A DNA stretch of 43,224 nucleotides from positions 1 through 43,224 of the forward strand of contig JACQQX010000041.1 of NCBI GenBank assembly GCA_016206805.1. Direction: 5' to 3'. A program made the position numbers and the translations under genes. The notes under the pieces are model-generated. The model was not told the DNA's origin. It saw nothing but the letters and a program-made list of their open reading frames with translations, and ran no database searches. This DNA comes from Candidatus Omnitrophota bacterium. GTDB taxonomy: Bacteria; Omnitrophota; Gorgyraeia; 2-02-FULL-51-18. How positions within the stretch are numbered: position 1 is the stretch's first letter; each line of letters opens with the position of its first letter. Shown piece by piece: positions 6,917-25,592 of the stretch.

Positions 6917-7907
6917 ACTCGTTGGAGCGGGTGATTTGCCTTAAAATAGCTTCTTTCAGTCTTGGGTCGTCCGTCAAAGACATCGCCTTGGTGTAATACT
7001 CGGCGGCCTTCGACAACTGCCTTTCTTTCTCATAAGCCAGCGCCAGACTCAAACAGGCTTTGTAGAAATTCGCGTCCAGCGAAACGCTTTTTTCAAAAGC
7101 CTGAACCGCCTGGGCCGTTTGGCCTTCTTCCGTATACGCGTGTCCCAGGTCATACCAGGCCAGCGCGTCCTCCGGCGCGATTTCCACCGCGCGCCTCATA
7201 TACTCGATGGCCTTTTTGTTCTCGCCCATTTCCTGAATTACATAGGCGATATTCGAGTACGCGAAAATATTGTTAGGGTCGGCCGAGATGGCTTTTTCAT
7301 AAGCCTCCCGGGCCTCTTTCAAATCCGATTGCCGGCTATAAAGATTGCCGATCGAAAGCCAGATGTCGGTATTTTTGCGATCGCCGGCGGCGCCTTTTTT
7401 GTAAGCGGCTAGGGCCTTCACCGTCTCTCCGGCCCCTTCGAGCGCCAGACCCAGCGTGTGATGGGCCTTGGCATTGCCAGGCGTCAACCCAACCGCCTTG
7501 CGCGCGAACGTAACGGCGTTATCGTAATCTTCCTTCTCAAGGTAAACAAGAGAAAGATTGATAAAAGCCTCGGCGTTTTTGGCATCCAACTCGCCCGCCT
7601 TTTTCAAGGCTTCCAGCGACTGGTCCCACTTCTCTTCTTCGGCATAATTAACGCCCAAACTCAAAAAAGCGTCGGCATTCGCCGGGTCCTCCTGCACCGC
7701 CTTTTCATAGAGCTCGGTGGACCGCTTCAGGTGGCCGCGCTGATACGCCAGGTCCGCTTCCTGCAAAAACCCCGAGCGTTTCCCGTCGGCGGCGAAAGAA
7801 TTCAGACAGTAGTTAGAAGTTAGAAGACAGCTGACGGCGAAAAAAAAGGAAATAAGTCTTTTCCCTGACTGCTGACTACTGACTACTGAATACTGATCAT
7901 CGTTCAA
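6915..7907 (-). CDS. Tetratricopeptide-repeat protein, possibly exported
   Basis: About 8 TPR units (e.g. ADAFLSLGVNY, AKAHHTLGLAL, ALAWYDLGHAY), hydrophobic N-terminus, ATGA overlap with nuoC. Confidence 0.88.
   Translation of the reverse strand: MNDDQYSVVSSQQSGKRLISFFFAVSCLLTSNYCLNSFAADGKRSGFLQEADLAYQRGHLKRSTELYEKAVQEDPANADAFLSLGVNYAEEEKWDQSLEALKKAGELDAKNAEAFINLSLVYLEKEDYDNAVTFARKAVGLTPGNAKAHHTLGLALEGAGETVKALAAYKKGAAGDRKNTDIWLSIGNLYSRQSDLKEAREAYEKAISADPNNIFAYSNIAYVIQEMGENKKAIEYMRRAVEIAPEDALAWYDLGHAYTEEGQTAQAVQAFEKSVSLDANFYKACLSLALAYEKERQLSKAAEYYTKAMSLTDDPRLKEAILRQITRSNE
7807..7896. repeat. CTGACTA heptamer array with a degenerate inverted partner in the TPR gene 5' end
   Basis: ctgactg ctgacta ctgacta ctgaata ctga at 7865-7896; cagtagttagaagttagaagacag at 7807-7830. 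Confidence 0.65.
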
Positions 7908-8389
7908 TGCATCGGCCCAATCAACGGTTGTCGTTTATTATACGGATAATCTTTCCTCAGAGGGTGCCCTTTAAACTCCTCATACATCAAAATCCGCTTC
8001 AGATTGGGGTGGCCGTTGAAACGGATGCCGAACATGTCCCACACTTCCCGCTCAAACCAGTTCGCCGCCGGCCAGACATCAGTGACCGAATCCAGGGCCG
8101 CGTCCGTCTCCTTTACCGGCACTTTCACGAACAAACGGTGTTTTTTGGAAATGGAATAAATGTTATAAACCACTTCAAAACGCTTTTCTTTTTCCTCCCA
8201 GAATAAATAATCCACTCCAAAAAGGTCCATCAGCACATTGAACTGGAAATCAACATCATCGCGAAGAGCCGTCATGAGATTTTTAATCGTTTCCTTTTTG
8301 GCGACAATCGTCGGGTCGCCGCCGGCAATCGCCGTCGCCTCAAGAACCATTGAGGAATATTTTTGCTTAATCTTCTCGGCTAAATTCAT
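7904..8389 (-). CDS. nuoC: NADH-quinone oxidoreductase subunit C
   Basis: RFEVVYN, WPAANWFEREVWDMFGIRFNGHPNLKRILM, GHPLRKDYP. Confidence 0.96.
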   Translation of the reverse strand: MNLAEKIKQKYSSMVLEATAIAGGDPTIVAKKETIKNLMTALRDDVDFQFNVLMDLFGVDYLFWEEKEKRFEVVYNIYSISKKHRLFVKVPVKETDAALDSVTDVWPAANWFEREVWDMFGIRFNGHPNLKRILMYEEFKGHPLRKDYPYNKRQPLIGPMH

Positions 8390-8397
8390 AAAACAAT

Positions 8398-8489
8398 TGT
8401 CATTCCGAGCGCAGGCGCTTGCGCCGAAGTCGAGGAATCAAGCTGATCCCTCGCGGAGTTTATCCCCTGAAAGGGGACTCGGGATGACA
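8398..8489. repeat. REP/MITE-like palindrome (TGTCAT family)
   Basis: tgtcattccgagcgcaggcgcttgcgccg...ctcgggatgaca between nuoB and nuoC. Confidence 0.9.
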
Positions 8490-8491
8490 TC

Positions 8492-8980
8492 TTAGACCTC
8501 CTGCTTCTGGTTTTGAATCTTATCCTGCAATTTCATCAGTCCATCCAGCACATTTTCCGGCCTTGGCGGGCATCCGGGGATGTACACATCCACGGGAATG
8601 ATGTGGTCGATGCCCATGACCGTCGCGTAATTGTCATAAAAACCGCCGGTGCAGGTGCAAACGCCGAAAGCCACCACCCACTTGGGTTCGCACATCTGGT
8701 CATAGATTTTTTTCAAAACGGGGGCCATCTTTTGGCTGATCGTGCCGACGACAAAAAGAACATCCGCTTGGCGCGGTGAAAAACGCGGGAAACCGGCGCC
8801 GAAACGATCCACGTCATAATGCGCGCAGGCGGTGGCCATGTACTCCATGCCGCAGCAGGCCGTGACGAAGGGGTATTGGAAAATGGAGAACTTGCGCGCC
8901 CAGCCAATGGCATCGTTGAGCTTTGTGGTCATAAAACCAAACTTTTCGAGATTAACGCCGCCTTCCGCTACCGCTCCCAT
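8492..8980 (-). CDS. nuoB: NADH-quinone oxidoreductase subunit B
   Basis: [41 protein letters not shown]; start moved to ATG 8980, which overlaps the nuoA end. Confidence 0.95.
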   Translation of the reverse strand: MGAVAEGGVNLEKFGFMTTKLNDAIGWARKFSIFQYPFVTACCGMEYMATACAHYDVDRFGAGFPRFSPRQADVLFVVGTISQKMAPVLKKIYDQMCEPKWVVAFGVCTCTGGFYDNYATVMGIDHIIPVDVYIPGCPPRPENVLDGLMKLQDKIQNQKQEV

Positions 8981-9336
8981 TCCAAAGCTCCTTTTTTCCA
9001 GGCATAAACAAATCCCAGCGCCAACAGCGCCAAAAATGAAAACATCACGGTGATCCCTGCCCATTTCAAGTCTTTCAGAATGACCGCCCAGGGGAAAAGC
9101 CATACGATTTCCACGTCAAAAAGGATAAAAAGCATGGCCACCAGGTAAAATTTGACGGAAAGCCGCCCGCCAACCGGCGCGGCCTGGGATAAACCGCATT
9201 CAAAGGGTTCGGACTTCTCAACCGACTGCTTGTTTTTCGGTCCGAGAATCTTATTGAGAAAAAGAATGGCCCCCGCGATGCCCGTCGCAATCAAAAAAGT
9301 GACCAGCACGCCAAGGTATTCCGTGGACTGCTCCAT
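8968..9336 (-). CDS. nuoA: NADH-quinone oxidoreductase subunit A
   Basis: KSEPFECG, FYLVAMLFILFDVE, AWKKGALEW; start ATG 9336. Confidence 0.95.
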   Translation of the reverse strand: MEQSTEYLGVLVTFLIATGIAGAILFLNKILGPKNKQSVEKSEPFECGLSQAAPVGGRLSVKFYLVAMLFILFDVEIVWLFPWAVILKDLKWAGITVMFSFLALLALGFVYAWKKGALEWER

Positions 9337-9491: not shown

Positions 9492-9713
9492 ATGTTAAAA
9501 CATGCGCCCAAAAAAATCGTTTCCGAAGAAAGTCTTATGCTTGTCGAAAAGATCTATCAAAAAGAAAAAAAATTGGCTAAGCTGGTAACCCACATCTGGA
9601 TCAAGAAAGCACACTGTCAAGCAGCGATGCCGGCCGCGTGTAAGGCCAAACGGGCTGCGGCGAGGGCGTTGCCTAACAACCGCCCCAAGGCCTTGACCGT
9701 GGTTTGGGAGTAA
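9492..9713 (+). CDS. Small basic hypothetical protein (uncertain), overlaps the giant gene 3' end
   Basis: ORF starts at the predicted TSS of a TTGACA promoter; no recognisable family. Confidence 0.3.
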   Translation: MLKHAPKKIVSEESLMLVEKIYQKEKKLAKLVTHIWIKKAHCQAAMPAACKAKRAAARALPNNRPKALTVVWE

Positions 9714-12700
9714 TCAAAATCCTCATCAAAATTCTGCATCGCTTCGTAGACCTCAGGAGTTAACCGGAAAGAAGCGTGAATACCTCCGCGGATCAGCGTT
9801 TGGAAAAGCTGGATCCCTTTATCGTCCAGGTCACGGTACTCCAATCTTCCCTCGGCAATAGCCGCCATAAACATCGCCGTAAACGGCAGAAAATCCTGAT
9901 GGCTATCTTCTTCCCAGACCAAAACACCCATCCCCTTTTTTGTCAGCGCTTGTTCTTCTAAATGCGCCGGAAACACATTAATCGTTTTTTCCGGCTCAAA
10001 ACCTACCAAATCATCCGAAAGGTCATCAGCCTTAAAACGCACATTATTGAAATTCTGGCGGATAAACTCGATGCTCTTGACCAACGCATAACGCCTAGCT
10101 GGTTTCATATTCTCCCAATCATCAGTTACTCTGATTAAGAGAGGCTTGCCATCTCGGACATCTTCGGTAACATCCAGCCCAAGCTGGTGAATTCGAGCAA
10201 ACAGGACCTCCATTTCATCTCTGCCAAACCTGTCATTCCCGAATGCTTCCATCGGGAATCGACTTTCGCTTGACCCACCACGTATCCGCAAAATAGGCCG
10301 CCTCATTCCATCCCATAAAACCCCACCATCTTCCTCTCGAACCGCAAACCCCGCTCCCTTCCCTATCCTCACCGGATAAGCCAAGCGCTCAGGCAGTTCA
10401 TTCAACCTCACCGCCTCCGAAAAGGATCGTTCCAGGCTCAAAATTTCGGGCCGAGAAAGCCTGCTTCCTCTCTGTAAGGGTCGTGGCAAGATATCGCTTG
10501 CTAACAGCGCAACCGGCTCCCGATCTCCTTCCCCGGGCGCGACCCATCGCGCCCCTACGCGGGTTTCAAAAGCGGATGATGGATCGTTTTCCCTCTCCCC
10601 TCTTACCTCTTCCCTCTTACCTGCCCTTATCGCCCGCCGCGCCCGTCCATTTCGGTGAGATTCAAATCTTGGGTGCGGTTTGCTCGCCAGCCTTGCCCCG
10701 GGAGGATCGGGCCGATCCAGCGCCGCGATAACATCCCTTGCTCCGCGGCGCCAATTCGGGTTTTGGCTTTCAAATAAAGAAAAAAGATGGTCCTTGAGAT
10801 CGGGGGCGCCCGCGGCGATCCTGACAAGCTCACAAACCGCTTCCCGATGAAACTCCGTCCACCGTTCGTGGGCGCCCATCTGCAGAAGCCATCGCCTGGC
10901 CATAAGATCATGGCCGTGGAGACTGAAAAACTCCAGGAGCGACTCCGCGGAAGAAATAATTTCCCGCTGGATTTGACTCTCGGTAAGAAAACGGGTTGCC
11001 GCCTCGATCAGATCGGGAAGAAACGCGATGGAAAAAACAAAAAACGGTTCGGCCAGCTGATCGCGCCAGTTGGGGGCCGCCTTGATTTCCAGGAGCCTTT
11101 CATACAAAGCCACCGCTGTCTTCCGCCATAAGGAGACCGGATTTTCCCGGTCATCGCCCCACCAGGCCCCCTCCACCGCGTAAACCAGCTCCTCCGAATC
11201 CTTCAAGACAGCATTAAAAGAATCGTCGGGTTTAATGATTAATAAATAATGCCGCAATCTTTTCATCGAACCGGCAAGCTCGTTTTCATACCGGAACGGG
11301 CTGTCATGAAATCTCCCGACGATCGCGTCCATCGCGGACATCAATTTGTTAAGAACCTTTCCTAAACCCCCGTCCCAGAGATCGGTGAACCGTAAACCCC
11401 GATTTTTGATTAAAATAAGAGCGCGGCGGATCTTTTCAAAGCCCAGACGCATCTGGCTCCTTTCTTCCGGAGTCAGGCCAACGCGCCCCAACAAGGAAAG
11501 AATCCGCTCCGTCTCCCCGATCGCCCGATCCAAAACCGTAAAGCCCCAATCCCTCTTTTCCGCCAACCGCGACCCGGGGCGCTTTTGGAGCTTGGCGATC
11601 ACGTCGGCGGTTAGACGCGTAAGGGCGGCCCGTCGCTCTTGGGTGAACGCGATGCGACTAATTTTCAGAAAGCTTCTCCGCAATGAACGCGCCGTTGACA
11701 CGTCGCTGGCGGCGGGAATGCTGGCCTCGTAGTAATGATAAATGGCCTCCCGGAGACGCGGGATCCATCGTTCAGCCTCCTCCTCTCCCTCCCGCTCTCT
11801 AACTTGAGACCAGTCATGCAATAATTCCCAAATATCCTGAACGCTTTTTAAATTATTTATCCGGTTTTCCAAATCAGCAAGATAATCCCGCGCCGCCAAC
11901 CGCGCGGCGGTTGAGGAATTATTTTCATTCTTAGGTTGCCCGGATCTCAAAAAGCGCAGCGCTCCCGGCTTGAACGTCCACTCCACGCCGCCCTCTTTCG
12001 GTTTTGCGAAAGCTTTCCCGCGCGCGCGCGCCATCTCGGCGATCCGCTGCCACAACCGGCGGTCAAATAACTGCACTTCGCTCAGGAAAATATTGAGCCT
12101 CAAATCGTCGTCATTTTTAGACATTAAAAGCAGCGAGCTCCAGCGCCGAGCCGGACCATCGTCCGGCAATCTTTCGACGCCAAGCCTTCTGAAATATTCC
12201 AGCGGCGCCCGGTATCCGAAAAGCTCCATCTCGATAAGCCGGTCGGCCAATTGCGCGCAAAACCAGTCGGGCAAATCGCCGGCCTCGGCCCTGCGGAAAA
12301 AATCCTCAGCCAAGGCATTGAGCCTGCGGTACTCTTTCGGATGCGCTTTCATATCGGACAATGTGGAGCCTTCCTTGAGCGCCAAAGCAATAAGCGCGTG
12401 GCGGGTGGCGGCATTCCGTCCGGCCGACTCCAGAAGTTTCTCGAAATGGTTAACGTTTAAAGTGAGCTGTCGCGTATCCTTGGCTCCGATGGTATCGTTT
12501 ATCTTCACGGCCGCGGCCGGCCGAGGCGGCTGGGGATCCTCATCGCCGATATCCGGAAAAATCATGAGCAGCTTGTTGGGGACGTTGAGAAACTCGTCCA
12601 CCCAGGCCCTTTCGTTGGCGCTGAGACCAGGACGAATTTCATCAAAGAATCGCTTCAGCCCTGCCAGTACCCGCTCGGAACGCTCCTCTTTCGCCGATTG

Positions 12701-15700
12701 AGGCTCCGTCCGCTCATTCCCTCGGGGTCTGTCCCCGCTTAAGAAGTCATAAAAAAGGCTTATTAAATAAATAGATCCGGCGGCCCCTAAAAGCGCTAAC
12801 AGTGTTTCCCGGCGATCCATTTTTCCCGCCAGCCGCGCGGCATTTGAGGCTGAAGGAGAATCGGTCTGGGCTGCTTCCGCCCTCGGCCTTCCGCCTTCCG
12901 CCGGTTCTTTCCCCGCCGGCCTTGCCCCGCGCCCGGCAAGGGGCCGCGCGGAGTCATCTCCCGCCACATGGACTTCCGCCAGTGGAAGAATTTGAAAATG
13001 AGGGATTAAGTTTGGCGAGGGGGTTTGTTGTAATAGGCCCAGGATGGCTCGGAGAGCGACCTCAAAAGGAGTGATCCATCCGCCGACGTCTTCCAGACCT
13101 TGAGAGCTGATTCTCACGTTGGCCAGCGCTGCTTCGCTCGGACCGTAAATAGTCAACTCGTTGATATTTTCTCTTAAACTCACGCCGGCCGCCGCCTCCC
13201 GCACGGCCCTTTCAAAAGAAGCGACCACGGGAAGCTCGTTTTCCAGGCGCGTCAAAAACCCCGACAGAACCTCAAGCGGTTTATCGTGGGCGGTTGTCCA
13301 ATCAACGGCGTGAATGAATACACGGTGGTTCCGGAAAATCCTCTCCAAAAGCCGCTGGATCTCCACCTGGCTCGAGCGATCCAGCGCGGCGCCTCCAAAC
13401 CGGATGTCGATATCCGAAGGGAAAACCGCGGCGGCTTTTCCGGCACGATGAAGCCGCTGGGGATAAATAACATTAAAGAACGCGTCCCCGTAGTCGGCGA
13501 TGTCCTGAGTGATGTAATTGAGAGCCGCCTGATCGGGAAACAGACCCAGTCGCATCGCGCCGCGGGCAAAACTCCCCGTCAAAAAAATCTCGGCTCCCGG
13601 CGCGATGCGGGAAACGCCTCCGCTCAACTCACCAGCGGCCGCGCGAATCCGATCGATGGTTCGGCGAACACCGTCGAGGGTGACCGCCATTCCCTTGTCG
13701 TTAAAATCGCCCTCTTCCCGACGACCGGTCGCCAACCGCGCGGCGGAAGGAGTCTGGTCCGCTGATTCCATGTCCGAAATGAAACGAAGCAAATCATTCA
13801 CGAGCCGGTTGAACTCCCTCAGGCTCCAGGCCAGCTCCAGCGCCCCGGCAGGCTCGCCCGTCTTCGCGTTAAGCTGCTCACTCATGACCTGCCCGTTCAG
13901 ATGACGCATATGGCTGGTTATCCAATCCAAATAACCCAAAGCTTTTTCAAGAACTTTATCCTGAGTGCTGGCCCTCACATCCGTGCCCAACAGGATGTGG
14001 AACGCCTGGGGATTAATGCGAGGATTGGGGTTTTCCGCGAAAAGCCGGAGCATGTAAAAAAGAAGCCGGCCGTACCAGGCCGTTGTCAGATACCAGGGAT
14101 TCTGACCCACATAGCCATCCAGAGGATAGCGCCCGATTCCCTGCCCCTTCCTCGGGCCATTCTCATCTTTCCACTCCCCGTTGATGGGGTAAAGCGAACG
14201 AAACACGATTTCATGGGCCGCAAAAGTTTGAATCACATGAAGATCAACGGCCGTCAAGAAAGGCATGCCTTCACGGCTTTCCTCGATGCTGTGAATAATG
14301 GCGCCTATCACCGAGGAATCAATGGGCCTTACGGTACGCCTGTCCTGTTCGGTAACCGTCGAAACAATAATTTCAAAATCGCCCGCCTTTGTGTCGGCCT
14401 CTTCGTCCCCGTACTGGGCTTCGAGATATTTTTGTTTGATCGCCTCCCGCAATTCAAGAATTAGTGGGAGTTGTTTTTTGTTTTTGTCGTCCTCGTGAAG
14501 ATATCGCATCTCCCGCAAAACCTGGTCCAGCGGCTTGATGTGGTCTTTGCGGATATTTTGCCGTATTTCAACCGCTTTCGCCTCCCAACGTTCGATTTCT
14601 TCGCCGGCGATGCTCAGGCGCTTGGCTAAAACAACGGCCTTATCCAAGGCGCGCGCCTGAGCCATTCGTGTATAAAAATGCAGTCCGTACAATTCCTCCC
14701 AAAGGTCAAAGCAAGGCTGATCCGCCGTCCTGCTGACAAAAGCCGTCAGTCGCTGAACGATGGGCCATGTCTCTTTTCGGAGCTGATCATTCGTCGCCGT
14801 GCCCGGGGTTTGCTCCATACGCGCCAACGCTTGATCGACGTAAGTTACAACCGTCAGCGCCGCGCCGTCAAACTGCGGGTTGCCCCATGGTCCGGAATAT
14901 ATCGTCCCATCCACCTCCCATTTGGCGAAACCCAGCAAATCCGGGAAGTTCCGTGACCGGCTTTTGTCGTCTTCCTCAAAAACCTTGGCCATGTATTGAA
15001 AAAGGTAGGCGTGGATTTTGTGGTTGATGCGGCGCTTAAGGTCAGGCGGCAAATCCACGTATTGAACCAAATGGATAAGGCCTTTGATGAGCAGGGCGGC
15101 GTCACGAGGCCATACGTACCAATAGGGATGGATTTTACTATGGTGCCTGGCCGCCACAGCCGCTCCCTCGATCGCGGCCGGGACCGGATGCCATTCTTCC
15201 CTCGTTCCCATTTTTTGGAACGAGAAAACGCGGAATCCGTCTTGCGACGAAGGGTCAATCGGCAACGAAAAACTATCCTCGTAAAGATGCATCCCGTCTT
15301 TATAGTCCCTGTGACCTTCTCGCCGAATCTCATACCAATAATCCAGGGACCACCAGATGGACGACGTAAAAATACGGCCAATGGATTTTTTCCGGTCCGG
15401 CTCCGGGAGAGCGACAACAATGCCTGTGGAACAAACAGTTTTGGAAGGGTCCTGGTTTTTGTCCAGAGATTGGACGAAAGCCGGAACCCTTGGATCGTTT
15501 GTCAGAATTTTTGTAAAACCTTTCGCGATCAGGAGTTCTTCCGGGCTGGCGCCGGCTTTCAAGTTTTTTAGTTCGGTTGTTAAGTCATTCACCCGTTTTT
15601 CCAAATCTTTTTGTTCTTTCTCTTTTTCCGCCTCGGTAGGACGCCAAAACGGTCGGTCGCCCTCCCGTAACACAAACTCCAAAAGCTGTTCGGCCGTTTC

Positions 15701-18700
15701 CTGAAGCGTCCGTAAAGCCCAATTCTTTCGGTCACCCGCCGCTTCCGCCAATCGCGCGCCGCGTCCCGTTCGTCCTCGGGCGCGGATCGAGCCCCACGCG
15801 CTGTCAATAGGTTCCTTGAAAAACGGGTAAGCCGCCTTAAGCGCGGAAAAACGCCGCTGCGCGTGAGTCATCCGATCGGCAGGAGACGCGTAACTCATTA
15901 CCCGGGACATCGCATGACGAAGCAAGCGCTCAAACGGTGTCAGATAATACTCCCCGAATTCCTGCACCCGTCTATCCCATGAATAATCCGAGTTCAGCGC
16001 GTTGGAGACCACTTCTTTCCATTCGGCCGGACGGTTATAAACAGCCATCGCTTCCACGATGGCCCCAAACAACTCATCTTTATCGTATCCCTCAAAAATA
16101 AAACCGTTTCCGTCAGGGCGCCTCTGGGTGTGAAAAGACCGAACCGTGTCCTGAAGGCCGCCCGTTTTTCTCACGATGGGAACCGTTCCGTAAAGCATCG
16201 CGATTGGGGGAGTCAGGCCAAACGGCTCCGTTTTGGAGGGCACAAGAAACAGGTCGCTCCCCGCATACACGAGTTTGTCGTTGGAATCGATCCTGTAGCC
16301 TTCCAAGTCCACCGGGCCCCTGTCCAAACGATCGTCCGGATCGTTCAGATAAAAACGGAACCGTCCGTCATACCCGCTCTGCCAAAGGTATTGCGCCAGA
16401 TTTCTAAAGTTCGCCTTTTCCTCGTCAAAACCGTTCATGTCATTGAAAATAATGACTTGCGCGCCGAGCCTCAGGAACTTTTCGACGTTGTCCCGCACAA
16501 GACCCGTTCCCTTTTGGTCCGGATCCAACCGGGCGATCATGGAAATGATCGGCGCTTTCGGATCAACCTTCAAACCAAACCGCTTTTGCAATTCGGTCTT
16601 CGCCATGGGTTTTATTTTTTTCATCTGTTCAGCGTCCGTAAACCCGCGATAAGCGCCGGAGCCGTTCCCGTTTCCCTTGTCCAGTCCGTTGGCGATCGGG
16701 TGCCACGCTCCTTCCTGGAGTCTCCTTCCGGCGACTTCACCCAAACCCTCCGTCAGAGAAGGATCGCCGAGAATTTCCCCGCCGTATCCCCGGCTGACCG
16801 GATCGACCCCGTCGGCAAGCGCCATGGCCGCCCGCGCCAAATTAAACCCGCCTCGAAGCGAAAAATCACGGGCGTATTGGGCCGGATCCGTCAGATGAAG
16901 GCCGAGCATGCCGAACCACTCATCCGGAAATTGGCCCTGATAAGAGAGCCCGGCGTTGTGGATTCTGTAAAAATACATGGCCCGGGAAAGCGAGTCTTTA
17001 AAATCATTTCTCTCATCAAGATGCCAGCTGGAGTGTTCGAGCCTCGCCAGGATGGGGACAAGAGCCGTCATCCAGTCATGAGCGTGAATGACATCGGGGG
17101 CGGGCATCAGGTTTTTTTGAACTAATTTAGGAATGATCTCCATCACACTGCGTGAGATAAAAACAGCCTGCCCAAGCGCGGAGTCCGGATAAGTGGTGTC
17201 GTAGAGATGGTGCGTATAATCCAGGGACGGATCCGAAGCGTGAAAAAGCCAGTGGTCAACCCCGTTGACTACCGCGTGTTTCACCGCGCCGGGAACTTGC
17301 GCGTTTCCGACAGGAACTGAATATTCAATCCCTGTCGATCGGACTTCAAAATCCGGCGGCGCTGAGTTTCCATTGATTTTGCGCCGGTACTCCGGCATGA
17401 CTAACGAAACACGCGGTCTCCCCCGCTCATCCCTCGAACCCTGCCGCGCGATAGCCGCGGCCTGTTGAGCCGCCGAATCCCCGAGGCCTCCCCCTTTTGC
17501 GAACGGAACCGCTTCCGAAGTAACGATGGCAACCCGCGATGGAAACCCATCCCATGAGATCGCCTTTCCACGCTCCGCCAGCCGCGCGGCAGTGATTTTT
17601 AGCGCCACGTCCTTCGAAGTGAAATCACGGTGCGCAAAATCATACATTCGAACGAACCCGGATGGAGTCAGCATAGCCAGAGGAGCTCCTGTTTCTCGCA
17701 TTGTTTGAAAGTCCTCATCCTCAAGGTAGAGAGTTTCTCGTCCATCCGCATGGTAGCGTAGAGTAAAAAGCAGTACGGCATCTTCTGGAGTCTGGAGAAT
17801 GGTTTCAGCGGATTGGCCGGAAGAAGCCGGAATGATTTGTATTCCCCGCTTAAAATGATAGTAAACCTCAGCATCCTCTCGGAGCCCGCGCAAAGACCTA
17901 GATAAATAAGATGAGGCCCTTATGAAATCGACCAATTCACCCACTCGGCGATCAAAACGAGCTTTCTTAATGCGACTCACCCTCTCCTCAACAAGTCTTA
18001 CCTTGGCACGACGACCATACGGAAACCCGGAACTTCGCTCCTTGATGAACTTTCTAGCTCGATACACTATTTCGCGTAATTTGCCTGAAGAGATATTCAG
18101 TTCTTCCGCGGCTTGTTCATAACTTGTGCCTCGGATAATCAATAAAAGCGGCTCCTTCCATTCTGGCTTAAGCCTACTAATAGCGCGTCCAACGGCGTCC
18201 CAGGCTTCTTCAGCAACAATCTGTTTTAAAGGATCCGCTTCCGGCCTGTCAGGCAATCGAAGAAAAGCGTCAATGCCAAGGTCCGCCTTATCCGGATGTT
18301 TTGATAATACAATATCCTCATCCGAACGCCTGGCCTCACTACCCAATCCGATCATTCTGTCGCTCCCCTTTATTTCTCTCACTACCAGAAATCCCCGGCG
18401 AATAAGATAAGATAGTTTGCGCGCGATTTTCTTAATATGGGAAGGCGTGATCGGCTCGTCGGCTTTTATTCCCAAAAGTGTGCGGACACTATCGTGCTGT
18501 CGGATATAATCGGATAGCTCGAAATACCCCGCTTGGATTTTGCGATAGAAGGGAAGCTGCGGGTTGACCAAATCCGCGTAAAAACGGAATGCTAGGGTTT
18601 CTGCCTGCATCATTCGTTCAGTTTCACGCCGTGAATATCCTGCGATGTGGTATCGCTGAAAATGCCCTGGATTACGTTTAAAATATGGCATTAAGATTTC

Positions 18701-21700
18701 ATAAGGCACCGCCAACTCTTCGGCGACTTCTTCCATAGTCATTCCCCATAAGAGCTCGCCATAAGCATCCATCAAAGATTTTAAATCCATTGGAGTATCG
18801 TGCCGCTCCAAGACTTTACGCTCAGTCAAAGAGACGGGCGTGGCTTGGGATTTGAGTTCCGCCAGCCGCGCTCCCGGGGGAACCGTGGACGAGCGCCTAA
18901 CGAAACCAGGGAGATCTTCGTAGCCCAATGCCCGGCAAACGTCCTGGAAAATTCTATCTCTTGGTCGTTCGTTTTGAGCAAATTTCCAGAATTGCAGCGC
19001 GATTTGTGTTTGGACGGACAAGGACATTTCGGGCCTAACGATAAACCCATACCGGCCGGGATTTTTTTCGATCAGTCGGAGCATTTCATCACGAATGCGC
19101 TTTCTGGCGGACCGGCGATCCGGCAGAAGCTGGCTCTCATTCACGAGAAAATCAAATAGCCCCAAAAGCCCTCCGTGACGAAAATCGACCAGCATGGCAC
19201 GGCCTTCGCTGTCCGCCGATCCCCAGCGGTTTTCATTAAAATTCTTGTTAAAGATAGGGTTTCCATTATCCAAATGATGCCCGTATTCATGGGTGGCGAT
19301 GGATTGTAGAAACAACGGCTCGGCGTTCTCCGGATTCCCCACCAAAGAAAATAATTTTAGCCTGGACATGGAAAAAGCCCGATCTAGATTGACATCATTC
19401 GCCCCTCCGCTCTCAAACATAAGCGGTATATCCTCCACGCGCCTTAACGCTTCAAGCTTTTCTTGGATTCGAAACATTTCGCTCCGGATTTTCTCTACAT
19501 GGGATCTGAATGGATCCTCATACACCATGGGCTGTGAAAACAACGCCTCCCCGCCAACGCTTACCGTCTTTCCGATCACTCCGGCTTCTTTCATTTCCGG
19601 ATTGGACACCACAGGGACGGCGGGATTTCCGGGCATGTCGTTTAGCCTAACCGTGCTTTTGACCGGATAAATTCCATTGAGGGGAACGTAGCTTCTTTCA
19701 AAATTTGTTTTTTTGAACAACCACTCTCCCTTGTAAACAACAATAAAGCCGTGTCCTGCCGCATAAGCGCGAATGCGCCCGTAAAGAGCGCGATTCCCGG
19801 CTTTTGAGTCCAACGCGGCCCCGACGCCCTTACGGTATGCCTCTGGAAGAAAATCTAAAAGACGCCGATGAAATTCGTCCAGCATTTGAACGGTATCGTT
19901 ATTTTTGTCACGGCTAAGAATCCTGGACTCGAAACTACGAAACAATTCTTCCAGTCGCCGCATTTTAGGCGCGGTGTCCTCAGTTTCAGCCGATCCCTGA
20001 ACCGCAATTCGCGAAGGACGCTGCGGTCTCGGCCCCGCGTTTCGATCCTGTCTTGTCCAGCAACCGGCGCCCATTCCGATCATCAACACTCCTAAAAGAA
20101 AAACACTCCGAAATGCCCCCGCCACCGAAACGTCGGCGGCCAGCCGCGCGGCTGTGAGTTTCCAAGCTGCCAACATCATGGCCGGAGGGGATGGAAAAGA
20201 CTTGTTGAGTAGTTTTTTGTAATCTTCTGGGACGGTAAAAAACGACAACCGGTAGTCCCGTTCATCAATCAGCGATTGGGCGAATCGGATAAGACCCAGC
20301 GACGTTTCCGATATCACGTCATGGCCGAGGAATGTGATGATCAATAGCCCTCCGGGCTTGAGCACCCTTTTTGCCTGCTGAATCAGCGCCCATGGCCTTG
20401 AATCGATATTATTGATGGTGACAATATCCTGAGAGGAGACGCTCAGGCCCGGGACGTTGTGATAATTCGGCGCGGATCGGCCCTCAGGATCAGCGTGATA
20501 TAGCCGGCGTTCCGGCGAAGGGATATTCTCAACAAGACTTTTCATCGGCTCGACACCCATCACTCTGACATCAACCCTTAAAAGATTTTTGAGATAATCG
20601 CCGAATGCGGGAACAAACGCGCCGGAACCGCTGTCCAGATCAACAAACCGCAGCGGCGAAACATGGGTAAACGCTTGTTTGATCATTAATTTCAATAATA
20701 ATGTTTGCACCTCATCAATATTTGAAAGATATTGCCTCTCAAATTTATCCGGAACCGACGAAATGCTCCGGATGGTTACCTTCCATGGAGTGGACTTAAA
20801 CGGTAGAGCTATCGAAACCACAACCTCTTGCAAGGACAGCGCCTGAATGAGATCATCCAAACGTAGACCGTCGGGCGAAGTGGCCCCATGCCGCCTGACG
20901 CGTAGGCCATTTTTTCGGATTAAGGGATTTCCTAAATGAAACGAAAGGTTTCTAAGAAAGCTCATGGATTGATCGTGTAAATTCCCGGAAAGCACATCGC
21001 TCTCTGCTGCAACGTGGCCGGATACTTCGTTCATCAAACTAGCCAACCGGCTTGCGGCGGCAGGTTCGAGAATGGGAAGCGCGCGGACTCCACTTGCCGC
21101 GGGCAATGAGGAGTCCGCCGACGCCTTGTGGCGGACTCCGGACTGACTGGGAGAATGGGCAACAGCGGATCGAGAACGTGGTCCATTTTCCATTTTCCAT
21201 TTTCCATTTTCGGCCTTTCCAAGCGGCTCTAAAAGGACCTCCTCGTATTTTCGTTGAATGGTTTCGGAGCGGATGTTGGGGGTGAGGATAACGTAGGACC
21301 AGCCTTTTTCGCGGAAAAGCCGCTTCAAATGGTCGGTGTGATAACCACCGGCGATGAGAATTACCGCACGCTTGTCATTCCGAGCGGAGGCGCTTGCGCC
21401 GTAGTCGAGGAATCGACTTGATCCCTCGACTTCGCTCGGGATGACATTGCCTGTCTTATCAATAATCCGTTCGGTGTTTCTCACAAACGCCCTGTCCCGC
21501 GCCGCCACGGAGCCGTAAAACCGCCGCAGGCTTTTCTTGCCCTTCTCCAAAATATCCTCATACGGCGCCATATCCTCAAACGCGCCGCGGTCCAGAAGCT
21601 CGCGGTTCAAAAAAGCAAGCATCGACAGCGTCGAGAAATCCTTTTCGTTAAAATCAAATAGCCGGTATTCCTCAGAGGACATCTGTATCCGGTAAGCGTT

Positions 21701-22630
21701 TTCAAGAAGGCGAAGATAACGGTCAATGGCCCTTAGCTTAAAGGGGTCAGACCCCTGTGGATAACCGCTCTTTATCCACAGGGGTCTGACCCCTTTCAAT
21801 ATCTGTGAATAAACCTCTTCCTCCAACCGCTCCATTTCATCCAGCACGGCGTCAAAGTTGACCTTTGACAATTCATCCGGGTTATTAAAAGACTTGGGCA
21901 AGTGATTAAGAGAAGTGGGGATGGAATATTTCTGAGCCAACTGAATCAGTAAGGTCAGTCTGTCATTCCCGCGCAAGCGGGAATCCACCGGATCCCCGCT
22001 AAAAGATTGCGGGGATGACCATTCCTCGTAGTCCAATAACTCTTTCGGATAGACCCGCCGTTTGAGCGTCTCCACCGCCCGGCGGATGCGCGCCAAGTAT
22101 GCCAAAGAAGCTTCTCTTTTTTTCACCAGTTCCGCGTACGCGCGGAGGCTTCGCATGTACAACCGCTCATCCTCAATGCCGAGCATTTTCATGGGATGAC
22201 TGGATGTGAGATTGAGATATTCTTCGCCGGAGATCCTGCCTTCGATGAGAAACTTCCTCGCCACGCGGCGCCAGACTTTGTCGGATGCGATATTTTTAAT
22301 GGGAGTAAGCGTATCGTCTTTCGTGCCGCCTTCCACAAGAACCGTGTGGATTTTGTATCGCGTCATCAATGAGTCAATGGTTTTGGAAAGATTCTCCTGG
22401 CCGGAGAGATTGGAATGGGCGTCTTGGATGTGAATGATCAGCGGCGCCCCGGCACGAATATACCGCTCTTTTAAAGAACAAAATTCAAGAGGCGGCTCAA
22501 AAGAAGGCGCGTCGGCCGCCGGCCGTATTAAGGAACCGGCCTGCGTGATGTCGGAGAAAAGGAAAATACCTGCCGCTAAGAGGGCGACGATTTTTGTCGT
22601 ATTTCGATGGGATTTTCGGGTCATTTTCAT
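9617..22630 (-). CDS. Giant (4337 aa) multi-module exported polyprotein with ARLA-delimited cargo domains
   Basis: Uninterrupted 13 kb ORF, Sec-like N-terminus, recognisable methyltransferase, HEXXH, sigma70 r4, GT5, GH15 and NTase-like segments separated by [GA][AS]RLA. Confidence 0.93.
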   Translation of the reverse strand: MKMTRKSHRNTTKIVALLAAGIFLFSDITQAGSLIRPAADAPSFEPPLEFCSLKERYIRAGAPLIIHIQDAHSNLSGQENLSKTIDSLMTRYKIHTVLVEGGTKDDTLTPIKNIASDKVWRRVARKFLIEGRISGEEYLNLTSSHPMKMLGIEDERLYMRSLRAYAELVKKREASLAYLARIRRAVETLKRRVYPKELLDYEEWSSPQSFSGDPVDSRLRGNDRLTLLIQLAQKYSIPTSLNHLPKSFNNPDELSKVNFDAVLDEMERLEEEVYSQILKGVRPLWIKSGYPQGSDPFKLRAIDRYLRLLENAYRIQMSSEEYRLFDFNEKDFSTLSMLAFLNRELLDRGAFEDMAPYEDILEKGKKSLRRFYGSVAARDRAFVRNTERIIDKTGNVIPSEVEGSSRFLDYGASASARNDKRAVILIAGGYHTDHLKRLFREKGWSYVILTPNIRSETIQRKYEEVLLEPLGKAENGKWKMENGPRSRSAVAHSPSQSGVRHKASADSSLPAASGVRALPILEPAAASRLASLMNEVSGHVAAESDVLSGNLHDQSMSFLRNLSFHLGNPLIRKNGLRVRRHGATSPDGLRLDDLIQALSLQEVVVSIALPFKSTPWKVTIRSISSVPDKFERQYLSNIDEVQTLLLKLMIKQAFTHVSPLRFVDLDSGSGAFVPAFGDYLKNLLRVDVRVMGVEPMKSLVENIPSPERRLYHADPEGRSAPNYHNVPGLSVSSQDIVTINNIDSRPWALIQQAKRVLKPGGLLIITFLGHDVISETSLGLIRFAQSLIDERDYRLSFFTVPEDYKKLLNKSFPSPPAMMLAAWKLTAARLAADVSVAGAFRSVFLLGVLMIGMGAGCWTRQDRNAGPRPQRPSRIAVQGSAETEDTAPKMRRLEELFRSFESRILSRDKNNDTVQMLDEFHRRLLDFLPEAYRKGVGAALDSKAGNRALYGRIRAYAAGHGFIVVYKGEWLFKKTNFERSYVPLNGIYPVKSTVRLNDMPGNPAVPVVSNPEMKEAGVIGKTVSVGGEALFSQPMVYEDPFRSHVEKIRSEMFRIQEKLEALRRVEDIPLMFESGGANDVNLDRAFSMSRLKLFSLVGNPENAEPLFLQSIATHEYGHHLDNGNPIFNKNFNENRWGSADSEGRAMLVDFRHGGLLGLFDFLVNESQLLPDRRSARKRIRDEMLRLIEKNPGRYGFIVRPEMSLSVQTQIALQFWKFAQNERPRDRIFQDVCRALGYEDLPGFVRRSSTVPPGARLAELKSQATPVSLTERKVLERHDTPMDLKSLMDAYGELLWGMTMEEVAEELAVPYEILMPYFKRNPGHFQRYHIAGYSRRETERMMQAETLAFRFYADLVNPQLPFYRKIQAGYFELSDYIRQHDSVRTLLGIKADEPITPSHIKKIARKLSYLIRRGFLVVREIKGSDRMIGLGSEARRSDEDIVLSKHPDKADLGIDAFLRLPDRPEADPLKQIVAEEAWDAVGRAISRLKPEWKEPLLLIIRGTSYEQAAEELNISSGKLREIVYRARKFIKERSSGFPYGRRAKVRLVEERVSRIKKARFDRRVGELVDFIRASSYLSRSLRGLREDAEVYYHFKRGIQIIPASSGQSAETILQTPEDAVLLFTLRYHADGRETLYLEDEDFQTMRETGAPLAMLTPSGFVRMYDFAHRDFTSKDVALKITAARLAERGKAISWDGFPSRVAIVTSEAVPFAKGGGLGDSAAQQAAAIARQGSRDERGRPRVSLVMPEYRRKINGNSAPPDFEVRSTGIEYSVPVGNAQVPGAVKHAVVNGVDHWLFHASDPSLDYTHHLYDTTYPDSALGQAVFISRSVMEIIPKLVQKNLMPAPDVIHAHDWMTALVPILARLEHSSWHLDERNDFKDSLSRAMYFYRIHNAGLSYQGQFPDEWFGMLGLHLTDPAQYARDFSLRGGFNLARAAMALADGVDPVSRGYGGEILGDPSLTEGLGEVAGRRLQEGAWHPIANGLDKGNGNGSGAYRGFTDAEQMKKIKPMAKTELQKRFGLKVDPKAPIISMIARLDPDQKGTGLVRDNVEKFLRLGAQVIIFNDMNGFDEEKANFRNLAQYLWQSGYDGRFRFYLNDPDDRLDRGPVDLEGYRIDSNDKLVYAGSDLFLVPSKTEPFGLTPPIAMLYGTVPIVRKTGGLQDTVRSFHTQRRPDGNGFIFEGYDKDELFGAIVEAMAVYNRPAEWKEVVSNALNSDYSWDRRVQEFGEYYLTPFERLLRHAMSRVMSYASPADRMTHAQRRFSALKAAYPFFKEPIDSAWGSIRARGRTGRGARLAEAAGDRKNWALRTLQETAEQLLEFVLREGDRPFWRPTEAEKEKEQKDLEKRVNDLTTELKNLKAGASPEELLIAKGFTKILTNDPRVPAFVQSLDKNQDPSKTVCSTGIVVALPEPDRKKSIGRIFTSSIWWSLDYWYEIRREGHRDYKDGMHLYEDSFSLPIDPSSQDGFRVFSFQKMGTREEWHPVPAAIEGAAVAARHHSKIHPYWYVWPRDAALLIKGLIHLVQYVDLPPDLKRRINHKIHAYLFQYMAKVFEEDDKSRSRNFPDLLGFAKWEVDGTIYSGPWGNPQFDGAALTVVTYVDQALARMEQTPGTATNDQLRKETWPIVQRLTAFVSRTADQPCFDLWEELYGLHFYTRMAQARALDKAVVLAKRLSIAGEEIERWEAKAVEIRQNIRKDHIKPLDQVLREMRYLHEDDKNKKQLPLILELREAIKQKYLEAQYGDEEADTKAGDFEIIVSTVTEQDRRTVRPIDSSVIGAIIHSIEESREGMPFLTAVDLHVIQTFAAHEIVFRSLYPINGEWKDENGPRKGQGIGRYPLDGYVGQNPWYLTTAWYGRLLFYMLRLFAENPNPRINPQAFHILLGTDVRASTQDKVLEKALGYLDWITSHMRHLNGQVMSEQLNAKTGEPAGALELAWSLREFNRLVNDLLRFISDMESADQTPSAARLATGRREEGDFNDKGMAVTLDGVRRTIDRIRAAAGELSGGVSRIAPGAEIFLTGSFARGAMRLGLFPDQAALNYITQDIADYGDAFFNVIYPQRLHRAGKAAAVFPSDIDIRFGGAALDRSSQVEIQRLLERIFRNHRVFIHAVDWTTAHDKPLEVLSGFLTRLENELPVVASFERAVREAAAGVSLRENINELTIYGPSEAALANVRISSQGLEDVGGWITPFEVALRAILGLLQQTPSPNLIPHFQILPLAEVHVAGDDSARPLAGRGARPAGKEPAEGGRPRAEAAQTDSPSASNAARLAGKMDRRETLLALLGAAGSIYLISLFYDFLSGDRPRGNERTEPQSAKEERSERVLAGLKRFFDEIRPGLSANERAWVDEFLNVPNKLLMIFPDIGDEDPQPPRPAAAVKINDTIGAKDTRQLTLNVNHFEKLLESAGRNAATRHALIALALKEGSTLSDMKAHPKEYRRLNALAEDFFRRAEAGDLPDWFCAQLADRLIEMELFGYRAPLEYFRRLGVERLPDDGPARRWSSLLLMSKNDDDLRLNIFLSEVQLFDRRLWQRIAEMARARGKAFAKPKEGGVEWTFKPGALRFLRSGQPKNENNSSTAARLAARDYLADLENRINNLKSVQDIWELLHDWSQVREREGEEEAERWIPRLREAIYHYYEASIPAASDVSTARSLRRSFLKISRIAFTQERRAALTRLTADVIAKLQKRPGSRLAEKRDWGFTVLDRAIGETERILSLLGRVGLTPEERSQMRLGFEKIRRALILIKNRGLRFTDLWDGGLGKVLNKLMSAMDAIVGRFHDSPFRYENELAGSMKRLRHYLLIIKPDDSFNAVLKDSEELVYAVEGAWWGDDRENPVSLWRKTAVALYERLLEIKAAPNWRDQLAEPFFVFSIAFLPDLIEAATRFLTESQIQREIISSAESLLEFFSLHGHDLMARRWLLQMGAHERWTEFHREAVCELVRIAAGAPDLKDHLFSLFESQNPNWRRGARDVIAALDRPDPPGARLASKPHPRFESHRNGRARRAIRAGKREEVRGERENDPSSAFETRVGARWVAPGEGDREPVALLASDILPRPLQRGSRLSRPEILSLERSFSEAVRLNELPERLAYPVRIGKGAGFAVREEDGGVLWDGMRRPILRIRGGSSESRFPMEAFGNDRFGRDEMEVLFARIHQLGLDVTEDVRDGKPLLIRVTDDWENMKPARRYALVKSIEFIRQNFNNVRFKADDLSDDLVGFEPEKTINVFPAHLEEQALTKKGMGVLVWEEDSHQDFLPFTAMFMAAIAEGRLEYRDLDDKGIQLFQTLIRGGIHASFRLTPEVYEAMQNFDEDFDYSQTTVKALGRLLGNALAAARLALHAAGIAA
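12842..13729 (-). other. Giant-protein module: Pol-beta-type nucleotidyltransferase-like domain
   Basis: IFLTGSFARG and SDIDI motifs, with an unusually long spacer. Confidence 0.5.
13745..15745 (-). other. Giant-protein module: GH15 glucoamylase domain
   Basis: YWYVWPRDAAL, WGNPQFDGAAL, FDLWEE..G.HFYT, IGRYPLDGY..NPWYLTT, MSEQ...GE..GA.ELAWS. Confidence 0.88.
15761..17575 (-). other. Giant-protein module: glycogen/starch synthase (GT5, GlgA-like) domain
   Basis: SEAVPFAKGGGLGD, PDVIHAHDW, IHN..YQG, PSKTEPFGL, YGTVPIVRKTGGLQDTV, DYSW. Confidence 0.92.
17591..18859 (-). other. Giant-protein module with sigma70 region-4 (ECF-like) HTH
   Basis: AISRLKPEWKEPLLL..GTSYEQAAEELNISSGKLREIVYRAR (~18040-18236) and a second HTH-like GMTMEEVAEELAV. 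Confidence 0.7.
18875..20137 (-). other. Giant-protein module: membrane/lipoprotein-like segment plus HEXXH zinc-peptidase motif
   Basis: VFLLGVLMIGMGAGC; ATHEYGHHLD (19277-19291) with a downstream Glu (SEGRA). Confidence 0.55.
20153..21040 (-). other. Giant-protein module: class I SAM-dependent methyltransferase-like domain
   Basis: FVDLDSGSG (motif I variant), VMGVEP, QDIVT, RVLKPGGLLII. Confidence 0.75.
21183..21210. repeat. 4x CCATTTT tandem heptamer, translated in the giant ORF
   Basis: Directly visible; encodes ENGKWKMENG. Confidence 0.85.
21373..21447. repeat. TGTCAT-family palindrome inserted in frame in the giant ORF
   Basis: tgtcattccgagc...ctcgggatgaca; encodes VIPSEVEGSSRFLDYGASASARND. 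Confidence 0.9.
21743..21793. repeat. GGGGTCAGACCCC/DnaA-box palindrome inserted in frame in the giant ORF
   Basis: ggggtcagacccc-TGTGGATAA-ccgctct-TTATCCACA-ggggtctgacccc; 51 nt, encodes GVRPLWIKSGYPQGSDP. Confidence 0.9.
21961..22019. repeat. GTCATTCCCGCG..GCGGGAATCC palindrome inserted in frame in the giant ORF
   Basis: tgtcattcccgcgcaagcgggaatcc...gcggggatgac; encodes SSPQSFSGDPVDSRLRGND. Confidence 0.85.
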
Positions 22631-22650
22631 TCGGGAAATTGAGTCACCAA

Positions 22651-22679
22651 AGTATACACGAGGCTCCCTTATTTTCCAA
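22651..22679 (-). promoter_or_regulatory. Putative sigma70 promoter of the giant gene
   Basis: TTGGAA-17 nt-TATACT, 20 nt upstream of the ATG. Confidence 0.45.
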
Positions 22680-22730
22680 ATAAAACCTGTGAAAAAGTTG
22701 ATTAATTTTAGATAAAATTGTTAATTTATT

Positions 22731-22809
22731 TGTCATTTCGAGGCCGTCAGACCGAGAAATCTCATGAAACAAAGATTTCTCGCCCGCCTTTGGCGGCCTC
22801 GAAATGACA
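22731..22809. repeat. TGTCATTTCG...CGAAATGACA palindrome
   Basis: Full two-armed copy between the divergent promoters. Confidence 0.88.
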
Positions 22810-22948: not shown

Positions 22949-23314
22949 ATGTCGCTGTTGCATGACTACGCGTATGTGTTGGGTTTTTTCATTATTGGCA
23001 TCGGATTTGTTGTCATTAATTCCGTCCTTCCTCTCCTGGTCAGTCCCAAAAGTCGCGGCGCGATGCGCGCAAAACCTTATGAGAGCGGTGAAGTGCCTCT
23101 GGGCGGCGCGTGGGTGCAGTTCGATATCAATTACTATCTTTTCGCCCTCATCTTCATCGCCTTCGACGTGGAGGCGGCTTTTTTGTTTCCGGTGCTGGTC
23201 GTTTATAAAGACATCCCCGGCATAGCGGCGCTGGTGGAAGTGACGCTCTTTTTAGCCATCCTCTCTTTCGCCATTCTCTATGCCTGGAAAAAGGGACTCT
23301 TCGCGTGGAAATAA
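22949..23314 (+). CDS. nuoA: Complex I-like subunit A
   Basis: [36 protein letters not shown]. Confidence 0.95.
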
Positions 23315-23907
23315 ACCAGGATCCCCATTATTTAAACACCCAAACCCCCTCTCCCGACATGGTTCGCTTTTTTAAAGTGGAAGACGTTTTCAATATGGCG
23401 CGCGCCAACTCGCTTTGGCCGCTGACTTTCGGCTTGGCTTGCTGCGCGATTGAGCTGATGGCCGGGGGCGCGGCGCGCTTCGATATGGATCGCTTCGGCT
23501 TCGGCGTGTTCCGCCCTTCTCCGCGCCAGTCGGACCTCATGATTGTCGCCGGAACGATTTCGCGCAAGATGGTCCCCTGCATTAAGACCCTTTATGACCA
23601 GATGCCTTCACCCAAGTATGTGATCGCGCTCGGCGGATGCGCGACCGCCGGCGGCCCCTTCAAATATCCCGGCCAATACGGCATTCTCGAAGGCATTGAC
23701 AAGATCATCCCGGTAAACGTTTACATTCCCGGCTGCCCGCCAAGACCCGAAGCGTTGATCGCGGGCATCCTCGAACTCCAAAAACAGATTAAAGAAGGCC
23801 GCACGCAGGGCGTGATGTCCCCCGCCGCGGTCAACGACTCCCAAGACGCGCGTCCGGCCGAATACAAAAACGCGATGTCCCGCGCGGAGTTTAGGAAACA
23901 GGTGTAA
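23305..23907 (+). CDS. nuoB: Complex I-like subunit B
   Basis: [40 protein letters not shown]. Confidence 0.96.
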
Positions 23908-23913
23908 ATCATG

Positions 23914-25586: not shown

Positions 25587-25592
25587 TAATGC

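Follow-up and report, generated by a model that had tools for sequence, protein, structure and literature searches.

Viral polyproteins carry recurrent cleavage motifs, as in the picornavirus 3C, potyvirus NIa and flavivirus NS2B-NS3 systems, and among bacterial systems with exchangeable modules integrons are defined by attC sites, imperfect inverted repeats of tens of bases at each cassette end, with an IntI-type tyrosine recombinase beside the array, and shufflons (sfx with Rci) by repeats in inverted orientation, so that segments can be inverted. Within the Omnitrophota, giant multi-enzyme proteins have been described, encoded by very long open reading frames (ORFs) in which unrelated enzyme domains follow one another (West-Roberts et al. 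2023, bioRxiv 10.1101/2023.11.21.568195), and "multi-enzyme metabolic clusters" have been described in the same phylum (bioRxiv 10.64898/2026.06.07.730766). The main texts of both papers suspect post-translational cutting and state the cleavage points to be unknown; the words polyprotein, linker and junction are absent from these main texts, and the supplements may hold motif analyses. A literature search returned no paper joining polyprotein and Omnitrophota, and nothing relevant on bacterial or prokaryotic polyproteins or on ARLA, AARLA or GARLA. Here we analyse a stretch of 43,224 nucleotides (nt) from a Candidatus Omnitrophota bacterium (contig JACQQX010000041.1, hereafter the window), in which a minus-strand ORF of 4337 amino acids (aa; positions 9617-22630) is divided by ten copies of a short peptide of the ARLA type, referred to as junctions and located from the ORF list and its translation. 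The window is contig C22 of a 1.39-Mb assembly (G000; 73 contigs, 87.6% complete); other G numbers denote related genomes and other C numbers contigs of G000.

The giant ORF is a capped polyprotein, in which complete enzymes (GlgA, a GH15 glucoamylase, a sigma-70-like module and others) are spaced by [A/G]-A-R-L-A. It begins with a hydrophobic anchor, followed by a conserved domain of roughly 470 aa (the cap) and then by the segments spaced by xRLA, whose Arg residues are at 528, 829, 1255, 1683, 2293, 2965, 3266, 3577, 3688, 3980 and 4327; these 11 sites are the ten junctions and a terminal copy. GlgA (residues 1699-2229), the GH15 hydrolase (residues 2484-2936) and the sigma-70 region-4 (residues 1479-1528) each lie between consecutive junctions (Table 1). 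Our preferred reading, to which we give about an even chance, is that ARLA serves as the in-frame punctuation of a bacterial polyprotein and that the extra uniformity of its DNA comes mainly from the copying of modules from junction to junction.

The DNA spelling of the junctions was the starting point of the initial annotation, and its counts are reproduced here: Arg is CGG in eight of the ten junctions (the others being one CGA and one AGG), Leu is CTG or TTG in all ten, the final Ala is GCG in eight, and the residue before Arg is GCG in seven, with AGC (Ser), TCG (Ser) and GCA in the remaining three. The 14-nt palindrome that it had noted, CAGCCGCGCGGCTG, is present at 20141-20154. The exact 12-nt word (12-mer) GCGCGGYTGGCG has five copies in the window, all on the minus strand, compared with a mean of 0.02 in shuffled sequences, none of which (0/100) reached five. 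At the window sites, the 8/10 use of CGG departs both from genome-wide usage (0.25; p=0.0004) and from the A-R-L context of ordinary genes (0.32; p=0.0025), and the 8/10 use of final GCG departs from context (p=0.004). For YTG (10/10, p=0.056) and for GCG before Arg (7/8, p=0.087), ordinary codon context largely accounts for what is seen.

The peptide recurs well beyond the window. ARLA is found 91 times in the frames of the genome, against 20.5 expected from amino-acid composition, and is concentrated in giant frames. Ten giant frames have four or more [AGS]RLA sites and hold 85 sites in total (open-ended frames included; contigs C39, with four xRLA sites in 5937 aa, and C7, with three sites, are omitted from the set); they add up to 36,163 aa or, by our own arithmetic, about 7.8% of the 1.39-Mb assembly. 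Exact 12-mers number 31 in the genome, 20 of them in frame within giant frames and 11 elsewhere; a third-order Markov model (Markov-3) predicts 3.2 in all for the two spellings together. Same-strand in-frame copies predominate within the giant frames. No orphan modules flanked by the 12-mer are possible among the 11 copies checked outside the giant frames, as no contig has two of them. One of the three in-frame 12-mers in ordinary proteins lies inside a tyrosine-recombinase gene (C46:17721-18221, plus strand, reading YARLAGV), most likely by coincidence.

The ends of the giant frames are also distinctive. All ten with a complete 3' end terminate in AA or SA, compared with 15 of 912 ordinary frames (1.6%). 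The tail of the polyprotein resembles the residues just before the junction Arg, a hint that released modules may all end in [A/G/S]-A. The tmRNA tag of G000 ends in PLAA. "Double junctions" occur on C4, C9, C50 and C55, where two xRLA copies lie 5-20 residues apart, as in the GARLAAARLA that ends the C9 frame; such short spacers may be scars of module loss or of less precise events, or very small modules.

Among 39 loci fetched from relatives, the commonest recurring 4- and 5-mers in the first 19 frames are GARL, ARLA, GARLA or GARMA, and the consensus across three families of the order is G/A-A-R-L/M-A/S. At the −2 residue, Ala (42) outnumbers Gly (27) among 81 sites in G000, and Gly is favoured in most relatives. 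Codons were compared at 332 junction sites of relatives, in polyprotein frames sampled from 15 genomes in three families of the order, and all six Arg, all six Leu and all four Ala codons occur there. As every synonymous codon is used in relatives, the DNA word itself is not required; with the peptide conserved across the order while its codons vary, the junction motif is primarily a peptide signal.

The initial annotation had also suggested that the codon constraint may exceed what a peptide needs, and this is confirmed in G000 against genome-wide, context-matched and codon-pair nulls. Genome-wide, usage is 0.25 for CGG, 0.09 for AGG, 0.395 for GCG and 0.51 for CTG and TTG together. The 85 junctions have CGG or AGG for Arg 65 times, YTG for Leu 72 times and GCG for the final Ala 53 times; of 75 Ala residues at −1, 47 are spelled GCG, and of 44 at −2, 38 are spelled GCC. 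Among 45 xRLA sites of ordinary proteins, YTG encodes Leu in 36, NGG encodes Arg in 15 and GCG encodes the final Ala in 16, and GCG accounts for 15 of the 22 Ala residues before Arg; across ordinary genes, 75% of the Leu codons ahead of Ala are YTG and 58% of the Ala codons in A-A-R are GCG. With the sequence context matched, the odds ratio is 4.0 for Arg NGG (65/85 vs 238/532 in [AGS]-R-L context), 2.9 for final GCG (53/85 vs 468/1297) and 5.8 for GCC at −2 (38/43 vs 113/199). Under a codon-pair Markov null for the 85 sites, Arg NGG is observed 65 times with 34.2 expected, final Ala GCG 53 times with 31.5 expected and a codon ending in C at −2 57 times with 41.2 expected, compared with 27 and 27.8 at codon +3. 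The excess over this null covers six consecutive codons (−3 to +2) and is absent at +3, third-position bias is back at background by −4 and +3, and the information is limited to about 18 nt. The residual synonymous bias, GCC-GCG-CGG/AGG-CTG-GCG, is therefore real.

The relatives share this bias in part. CGG is used at 150 of the 332 sites, with about 65 expected from the frames' own usage according to the row sums of our table. Per-genome tests used context-matched backgrounds from each genome's own polyprotein frames and covered seven well-sampled genomes (the per-genome codon table omits G012, G006 and G027, which have 2, 4 and 0 sites). In six of the seven, AT-rich ones included, junctions use CGG two to four times as often as the background, with junction and background values of 0.63 vs 0.15 in G008 and 0.29 vs 0.07 in G014. 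The GC-rich G009 has no bias (0.26 vs 0.30) and uses CGC, CTC and GCC spellings. The preferred junction Leu codon is CTG in G000 and G008, TTG in G007 and G010, and CTT or TTG, with CTG depleted, in G013. A likelihood-ratio analysis found, at all four codons, both a significant effect of junctions shared by the genomes and significant differences between genomes, and the balance of CGG and AGG is not the same in all ORFs of G000 (permutation p=0.006). The codon excess is thus partly common to genera and partly specific to a genome or ORF.

Comparison of polyproteins indicates that modules behave as units bounded by junctions. The closest relative, G011, has an orthologous polyprotein, with a GlgA module 69% identical to that of the window and a homologue of module 8 directly before it; the alignments start and end at ARLA or ARMA, and module order differs between the two genomes, with homology breaking exactly at junctions. 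Contig C9 carries two copies of a 384-nt module, separated by about 1.7 kb, with 79% identity and unrelated flanks, the identity extending from the CGG of the upstream junction to the GC of the Ala codon in the downstream junction. At locus L096 of G013, a module of roughly 225 nt occurs three times in one frame with 89-97% identity and the same boundaries. Among 24 homologous segments shared by polyproteins outside the cap, several have ends that lie, in both partners, only a few residues from a junction; for all segments, a set dominated by cap-to-cap matches, 181 of 1184 ends lie at most 15 aa from a junction, compared with 7.9% for random placement. A protein database search with the GlgA module returned the query, its G011 orthologue and one distant protein, and no series of module-order variants, and a metagenome scan with the same module gave 55 loci, which reached at most 48% identity, over short stretches, and included no close relative.

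Four groundwater runs of a single study supplied the population data, in the form of contigs; the window itself may derive from one of these runs. Between 9400 and about 21100, the contigs follow the order of the window, with few differences. Variants breaking at the 12-mer, for which the initial annotation had proposed a check, did not appear, in that no joints fall at junctions in the contigs of the four runs, from which rare variants cannot be excluded. Since contigs hide rare variants, the collinearity is only weak evidence against frequent rearrangement. Of each contig joint listed, one or both ends fall in the repeat-rich cap region 21083-22781, where REP-like repeats raise the depth to 2348. 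A joint from 21793 to 10588 (runs X1 and X2) ends in a pyrimidine-rich low-complexity stretch at 10588-10625, which is not a junction and encodes GKREEVRGERE-type sequence on the minus strand; this joint is probably repeat-driven. This depth is reached at 21740-21796, where the coding region of the cap contains an in-frame perfect palindrome (25-nt arms, 7-nt loop), one arm of which is found again at 33-49; it resembles a REP-like element that is translated as part of a cap loop.

According to our preferred reading, [A/G]-A-R-L/M-A/S would separate complete, otherwise unrelated proteins and would most likely mark the site at which the chain is cut. The likeness of the junctions at the DNA level would then have three layers, namely the conserved pentapeptide itself, the ordinary codon context of the genome, which would cover most of the YTG and of the GCG before Arg, and the residual synonymous bias, which would reflect mainly the non-independent evolution of junction DNA. 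Modules would be duplicated and relocated from junction to junction through crossovers in the short shared sequence, by microhomology-guided recombination or gene conversion, and junction spellings would thereby be kept alike within a genome and within an ORF. Non-independent evolution is suggested because ORFs of one genome differ in their use of CGG and AGG, the Leu codon is genome-specific and the genomes are heterogeneous. Exchange at junction microhomology is plausible; dedicated integron or shufflon machinery is neither needed nor seen, and is not supported.

Several points weigh against this reading. Its main gap is the direction of the GCG/CGG bias, which is common to six of seven genomes, AT-rich ones included; from copying and drift alone, no common direction would be expected. 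RNA- or translation-level selection, or conversion biased towards GC, may play a part. Most junction pairs have no DNA similarity beyond the motif, so that copied tracts would have to be very short, and the seamless duplications found belong to just two families. Their junction-bounded ends could also be favoured by selection that keeps junctions intact. Codons at orthologous junctions of G000 and G011 are identical in 11 of 16 cases against a baseline of 383/748 (51%), which is no significant extra conservation. The junction sites are not independent of each other, and the p-values are overstated. Cleavage at the junctions is itself something that we infer from the sequence.

One alternative is a purely mRNA- or translation-level selection, be it for a ribosome pause for co-translational folding or cutting, or for a tRNA need at the scissile Ala-Arg, with no DNA exchange at all; we regard this as rather unlikely. 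It would fit the shared direction of the bias, the shared effect, significant at four codons, the concentration of the bias at the Ala(−1)-Arg pair, and the presence of dedicated tRNA-Arg(CCG) and tRNA-Arg(CCU) genes. However, Ala is GCC at −2 but GCG at −1 and +2, a poor fit to a simple tRNA preference that rules out a single-tRNA explanation; the tRNA set includes all five Arg isoacceptors. The Leu preference varies by genome independently of codon rarity, and G009 lacks the bias altogether. Conserved residues of the cap have no such preference, with CGG in 17% of 48 codons at invariant Arg columns (background 24%) and YTG in 29% of 254 codons at invariant Leu columns (at or below background), and selection for translational accuracy or general selection at conserved residues is ruled out on these grounds. 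Junction windows of 120 nt do fold more stably (−38.5 vs −31.5 kcal/mol), yet the difference tracks their GC content (58% vs 52%), and a local RNA fold beyond this GC effect was rejected; an Rfam search found nothing at the junctions, and no conserved pairing-partner sequence was found near them. That ordinary codon usage of a GC-rich peptide motif explains everything is highly improbable. The control xRLA sites of ordinary proteins do largely reproduce the YTG (36/45) and GCG (15/22) preferences, neither of which is significant against context at the ten sites of the window, but they leave Arg NGG at 15/45 compared with 65/85 at junctions, and the final GCG, the excess at six consecutive codons and the more than doubled CGG of the relatives go beyond such usage.

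The remaining alternatives place the cause in the junction DNA itself. The initial annotation had proposed in-frame shuffling of modules at a short DNA site of the integron or shufflon kind, and the first half of this proposal stands, in that modules are junction-bounded units, whereas a dedicated site is not borne out. Such a system, with the 12-mer or its palindromic core as the crossover for inserting or shuffling in-frame cassettes, would account for a short DNA motif repeated at every module border, for seamless junction-to-junction copies, for module order that varies between genera at junctions and for codon homogeneity above the null, but we consider it very unlikely. The conserved DNA extends over only about 18 nt; an inverted-repeat search found no flanking inverted repeats or attC-type sites at junctions, and the window has no inverted junction copies, the single orientation and constant frame of its copies excluding inversion-type shuffling. 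As the annotation had stated, no recombinase is visible in the window (none among 24 flanking ORFs); the assembly encodes two tyrosine recombinases (PF00589, contigs C46 and C41) and one serine recombinase, all off the window contig. The palindrome CCGCGCGG is a by-product of the Ala-Ala-Arg codons and is lost in relatives with Gly (GGC) in place of the first Ala, that is, in the order-wide consensus GARLA. Outside junctions, the 8-mer palindrome occurs 146 times with 129 expected from a Markov model and the 10-mer 16 times with 17.9 expected, GCTGGCGG is likewise at about its Markov-expected numbers, and with these sub-motifs at expected counts the idea of a palindrome, restriction site or Chi-like element was rejected. 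Codons vary among relatives, G009 works with its CGC, CTC and GCC spellings, and the contigs of the four runs, which would miss rare variants, have no joints at junctions. A less specific version, in which junction DNA is the crossover site of an in-frame cassette exchange (an "integron inside an ORF") whose homogeneity is kept by exchange, possibly by an unrecognised enzyme, and in which any module bounded by two junctions could be excised, copied and re-inserted at any polyprotein junction with the frame intact, seems to us unlikely as a whole.

Of 26 related genomes searched, 23 contain matches to the window's cap, in many cases numerous ones, at the head of frames of 1,000-14,000 aa. An alignment of 24 caps has 29 invariant columns, including D40, H42, E70, G398, G399 and H401. 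A structural model of the cap (pLDDT 79.6) was compared with 48,161 chains using VIA-align, in which Z values of 7-8 are typical for models with no true match and those of the cap are middling; EreC (Z 9.1, root-mean-square deviation 4.4, 169 residues aligned), HopBA1 (8.7), 2qgm (8.6) and ChaN (8.5) are four of the five best rows, with 2rad (Z 8.0) and RRSP (Z 5.7) lower. EreC, HopBA1, 2qgm, ChaN and RRSP are members of the Tiki/erythromycin-esterase/ChaN (TraB) superfamily, and a relation of the cap to this fold is suggestive only. Foldseek against the PDB gave no match to the cap at E≤0.001, the best being EreC with a probability of 0.66; the cap has no Pfam match, and a profile search of PDB sequences gave no convincing match. 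The conserved, hydrolase-like cap at the N-terminus is the candidate processing protease. In module 3, an HEYGH motif (HExxH, zinc-protease-like) after a hydrophobic segment is a second candidate processing enzyme within the polyprotein.

The polyprotein gene is flanked by two divergently oriented, partly redundant complex-I (nuo) operons, at 3-9103 on the minus strand and 23305-32719 on the plus strand, and in the downstream one a TPR protein separates nuoC from nuoD. G000 also encodes a stand-alone GlgA (464 aa) at C27:4350-5459 (minus strand); as it is only 35% identical to the polyprotein module, the latter is a divergent paralogue and not the sole glycogen synthase.

Table 1. Modules and junctions of the capped polyprotein, in order from the N-terminus of the minus-strand ORF (positions are those of the window)
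Feature	Position	Strand	Description
Module 1	21053..22630	-	aa 1-526; hydrophobic anchor and conserved cap; motifs HIQDAHSN, VLVEGG, GGYHT
Junction 1	21041..21052	-	A-S-R-L-A; AGC CGG TTG GCT
Module 2	20150..21040	-	aa 531-827; weak methyltransferase-like match (Methyltransf_11, E 0.004, below curated cut-off)
Junction 2	20138..20149	-	A-A-R-L-A; GCG CGG CTG GCC; palindrome CAGCCGCGCGGCTG at 20141-20154
Module 3	18872..20137	-	aa 832-1253; hydrophobic segment, then HEYGH (HExxH) domain, read from the translation; no Pfam match
Junction 3	18860..18871	-	G-A-R-L-A; exact 12-mer
Module 4	17588..18859	-	aa 1258-1681; sigma-70 region-4/helix-turn-helix (Sigma70_r4_2, E 2e-8)
Junction 4	17576..17587	-	A-A-R-L-A; exact 12-mer
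Module 5	15758..17575	-	aa 1686-2291; complete glycogen/starch synthase GlgA (TIGR02095 positions 2-474 of 477, E 1.6e-73; Glyco_transf_5 and Glycos_transf_1)
Junction 5	15746..15757	-	G-A-R-L-A; GCG CGA TTG GCG
Module 6	13742..15745	-	aa 2296-2963; GH15 glucoamylase-type hydrolase (Glyco_hydro_15 positions 19-418 of 427, E 8e-43)
Junction 6	13730..13741	-	A-A-R-L-A; exact 12-mer
Module 7	12839..13729	-	aa 2968-3264; possible nucleotidyltransferase (sub-threshold NTP_transf_2 match, E 0.13)
Junction 7	12827..12838	-	A-A-R-L-A; exact 12-mer
Module 8	11906..12826	-	aa 3269-3575; 40% identity to G011 residues 454-766, alignment ends at junction
Junction 8	11894..11905	-	A-A-R-L-A; exact 12-mer
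Module 9	11573..11893	-	aa 3580-3686; short module
Junction 9	11561..11572	-	G-S-R-L-A; TCG CGG TTG GCG
Module 10	10697..11560	-	aa 3691-3978
Junction 10	10685..10696	-	G-A-R-L-A; GCA AGG CTG GCG
Module 11	9656..10684	-	aa 3983-4325; weak homology to G011 residues 3215-3349
Terminal A-A-R-L-A	9620..9655	-	GCC CGT TTG GCC, then tail LHAAGIAA and stop

A defined junction peptide offers testable candidate cut sites for giant proteins and allows giant ORFs to be divided along their real units when they are annotated or their structures predicted. The result at the DNA level adds a mechanism of construction, by which whole enzymes are seemingly copied and moved from junction to junction with the frame intact; if the junction sequence indeed guides this exchange, it would be a new bacterial way of shuffling genes inside a reading frame.

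The locus shares with integrons and shufflons a repeated short sequence that bounds exchangeable modules, whose content and order vary among relatives. It differs from both in that the motif is translated, is only about 12-18 nt long and has a single orientation, and in that the modules are not separate ORFs; unlike in integrons, attC-type imperfect inverted repeats are missing and no adjacent integrase was found. With viral polyproteins it has in common that a single ORF encodes complete proteins, that each boundary bears a short conserved motif and that a hydrolase-like domain is supplied in cis. Here, however, the genome is cellular and has about ten such genes, the proteins are enzymes of metabolism and regulation, the cap does not belong to the chymotrypsin-like proteases, and cleavage would be a property predicted from the junctions. 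Among the closest known counterparts are the giant multi-enzyme proteins of the Omnitrophota, which, as presented in the main texts, share with the capped polyprotein the phylum, the long ORFs, the unrelated enzyme domains and the suspected cutting; to these main-text accounts, the present analysis adds the junction peptide, its DNA spelling and the junction-bounded copies of modules.

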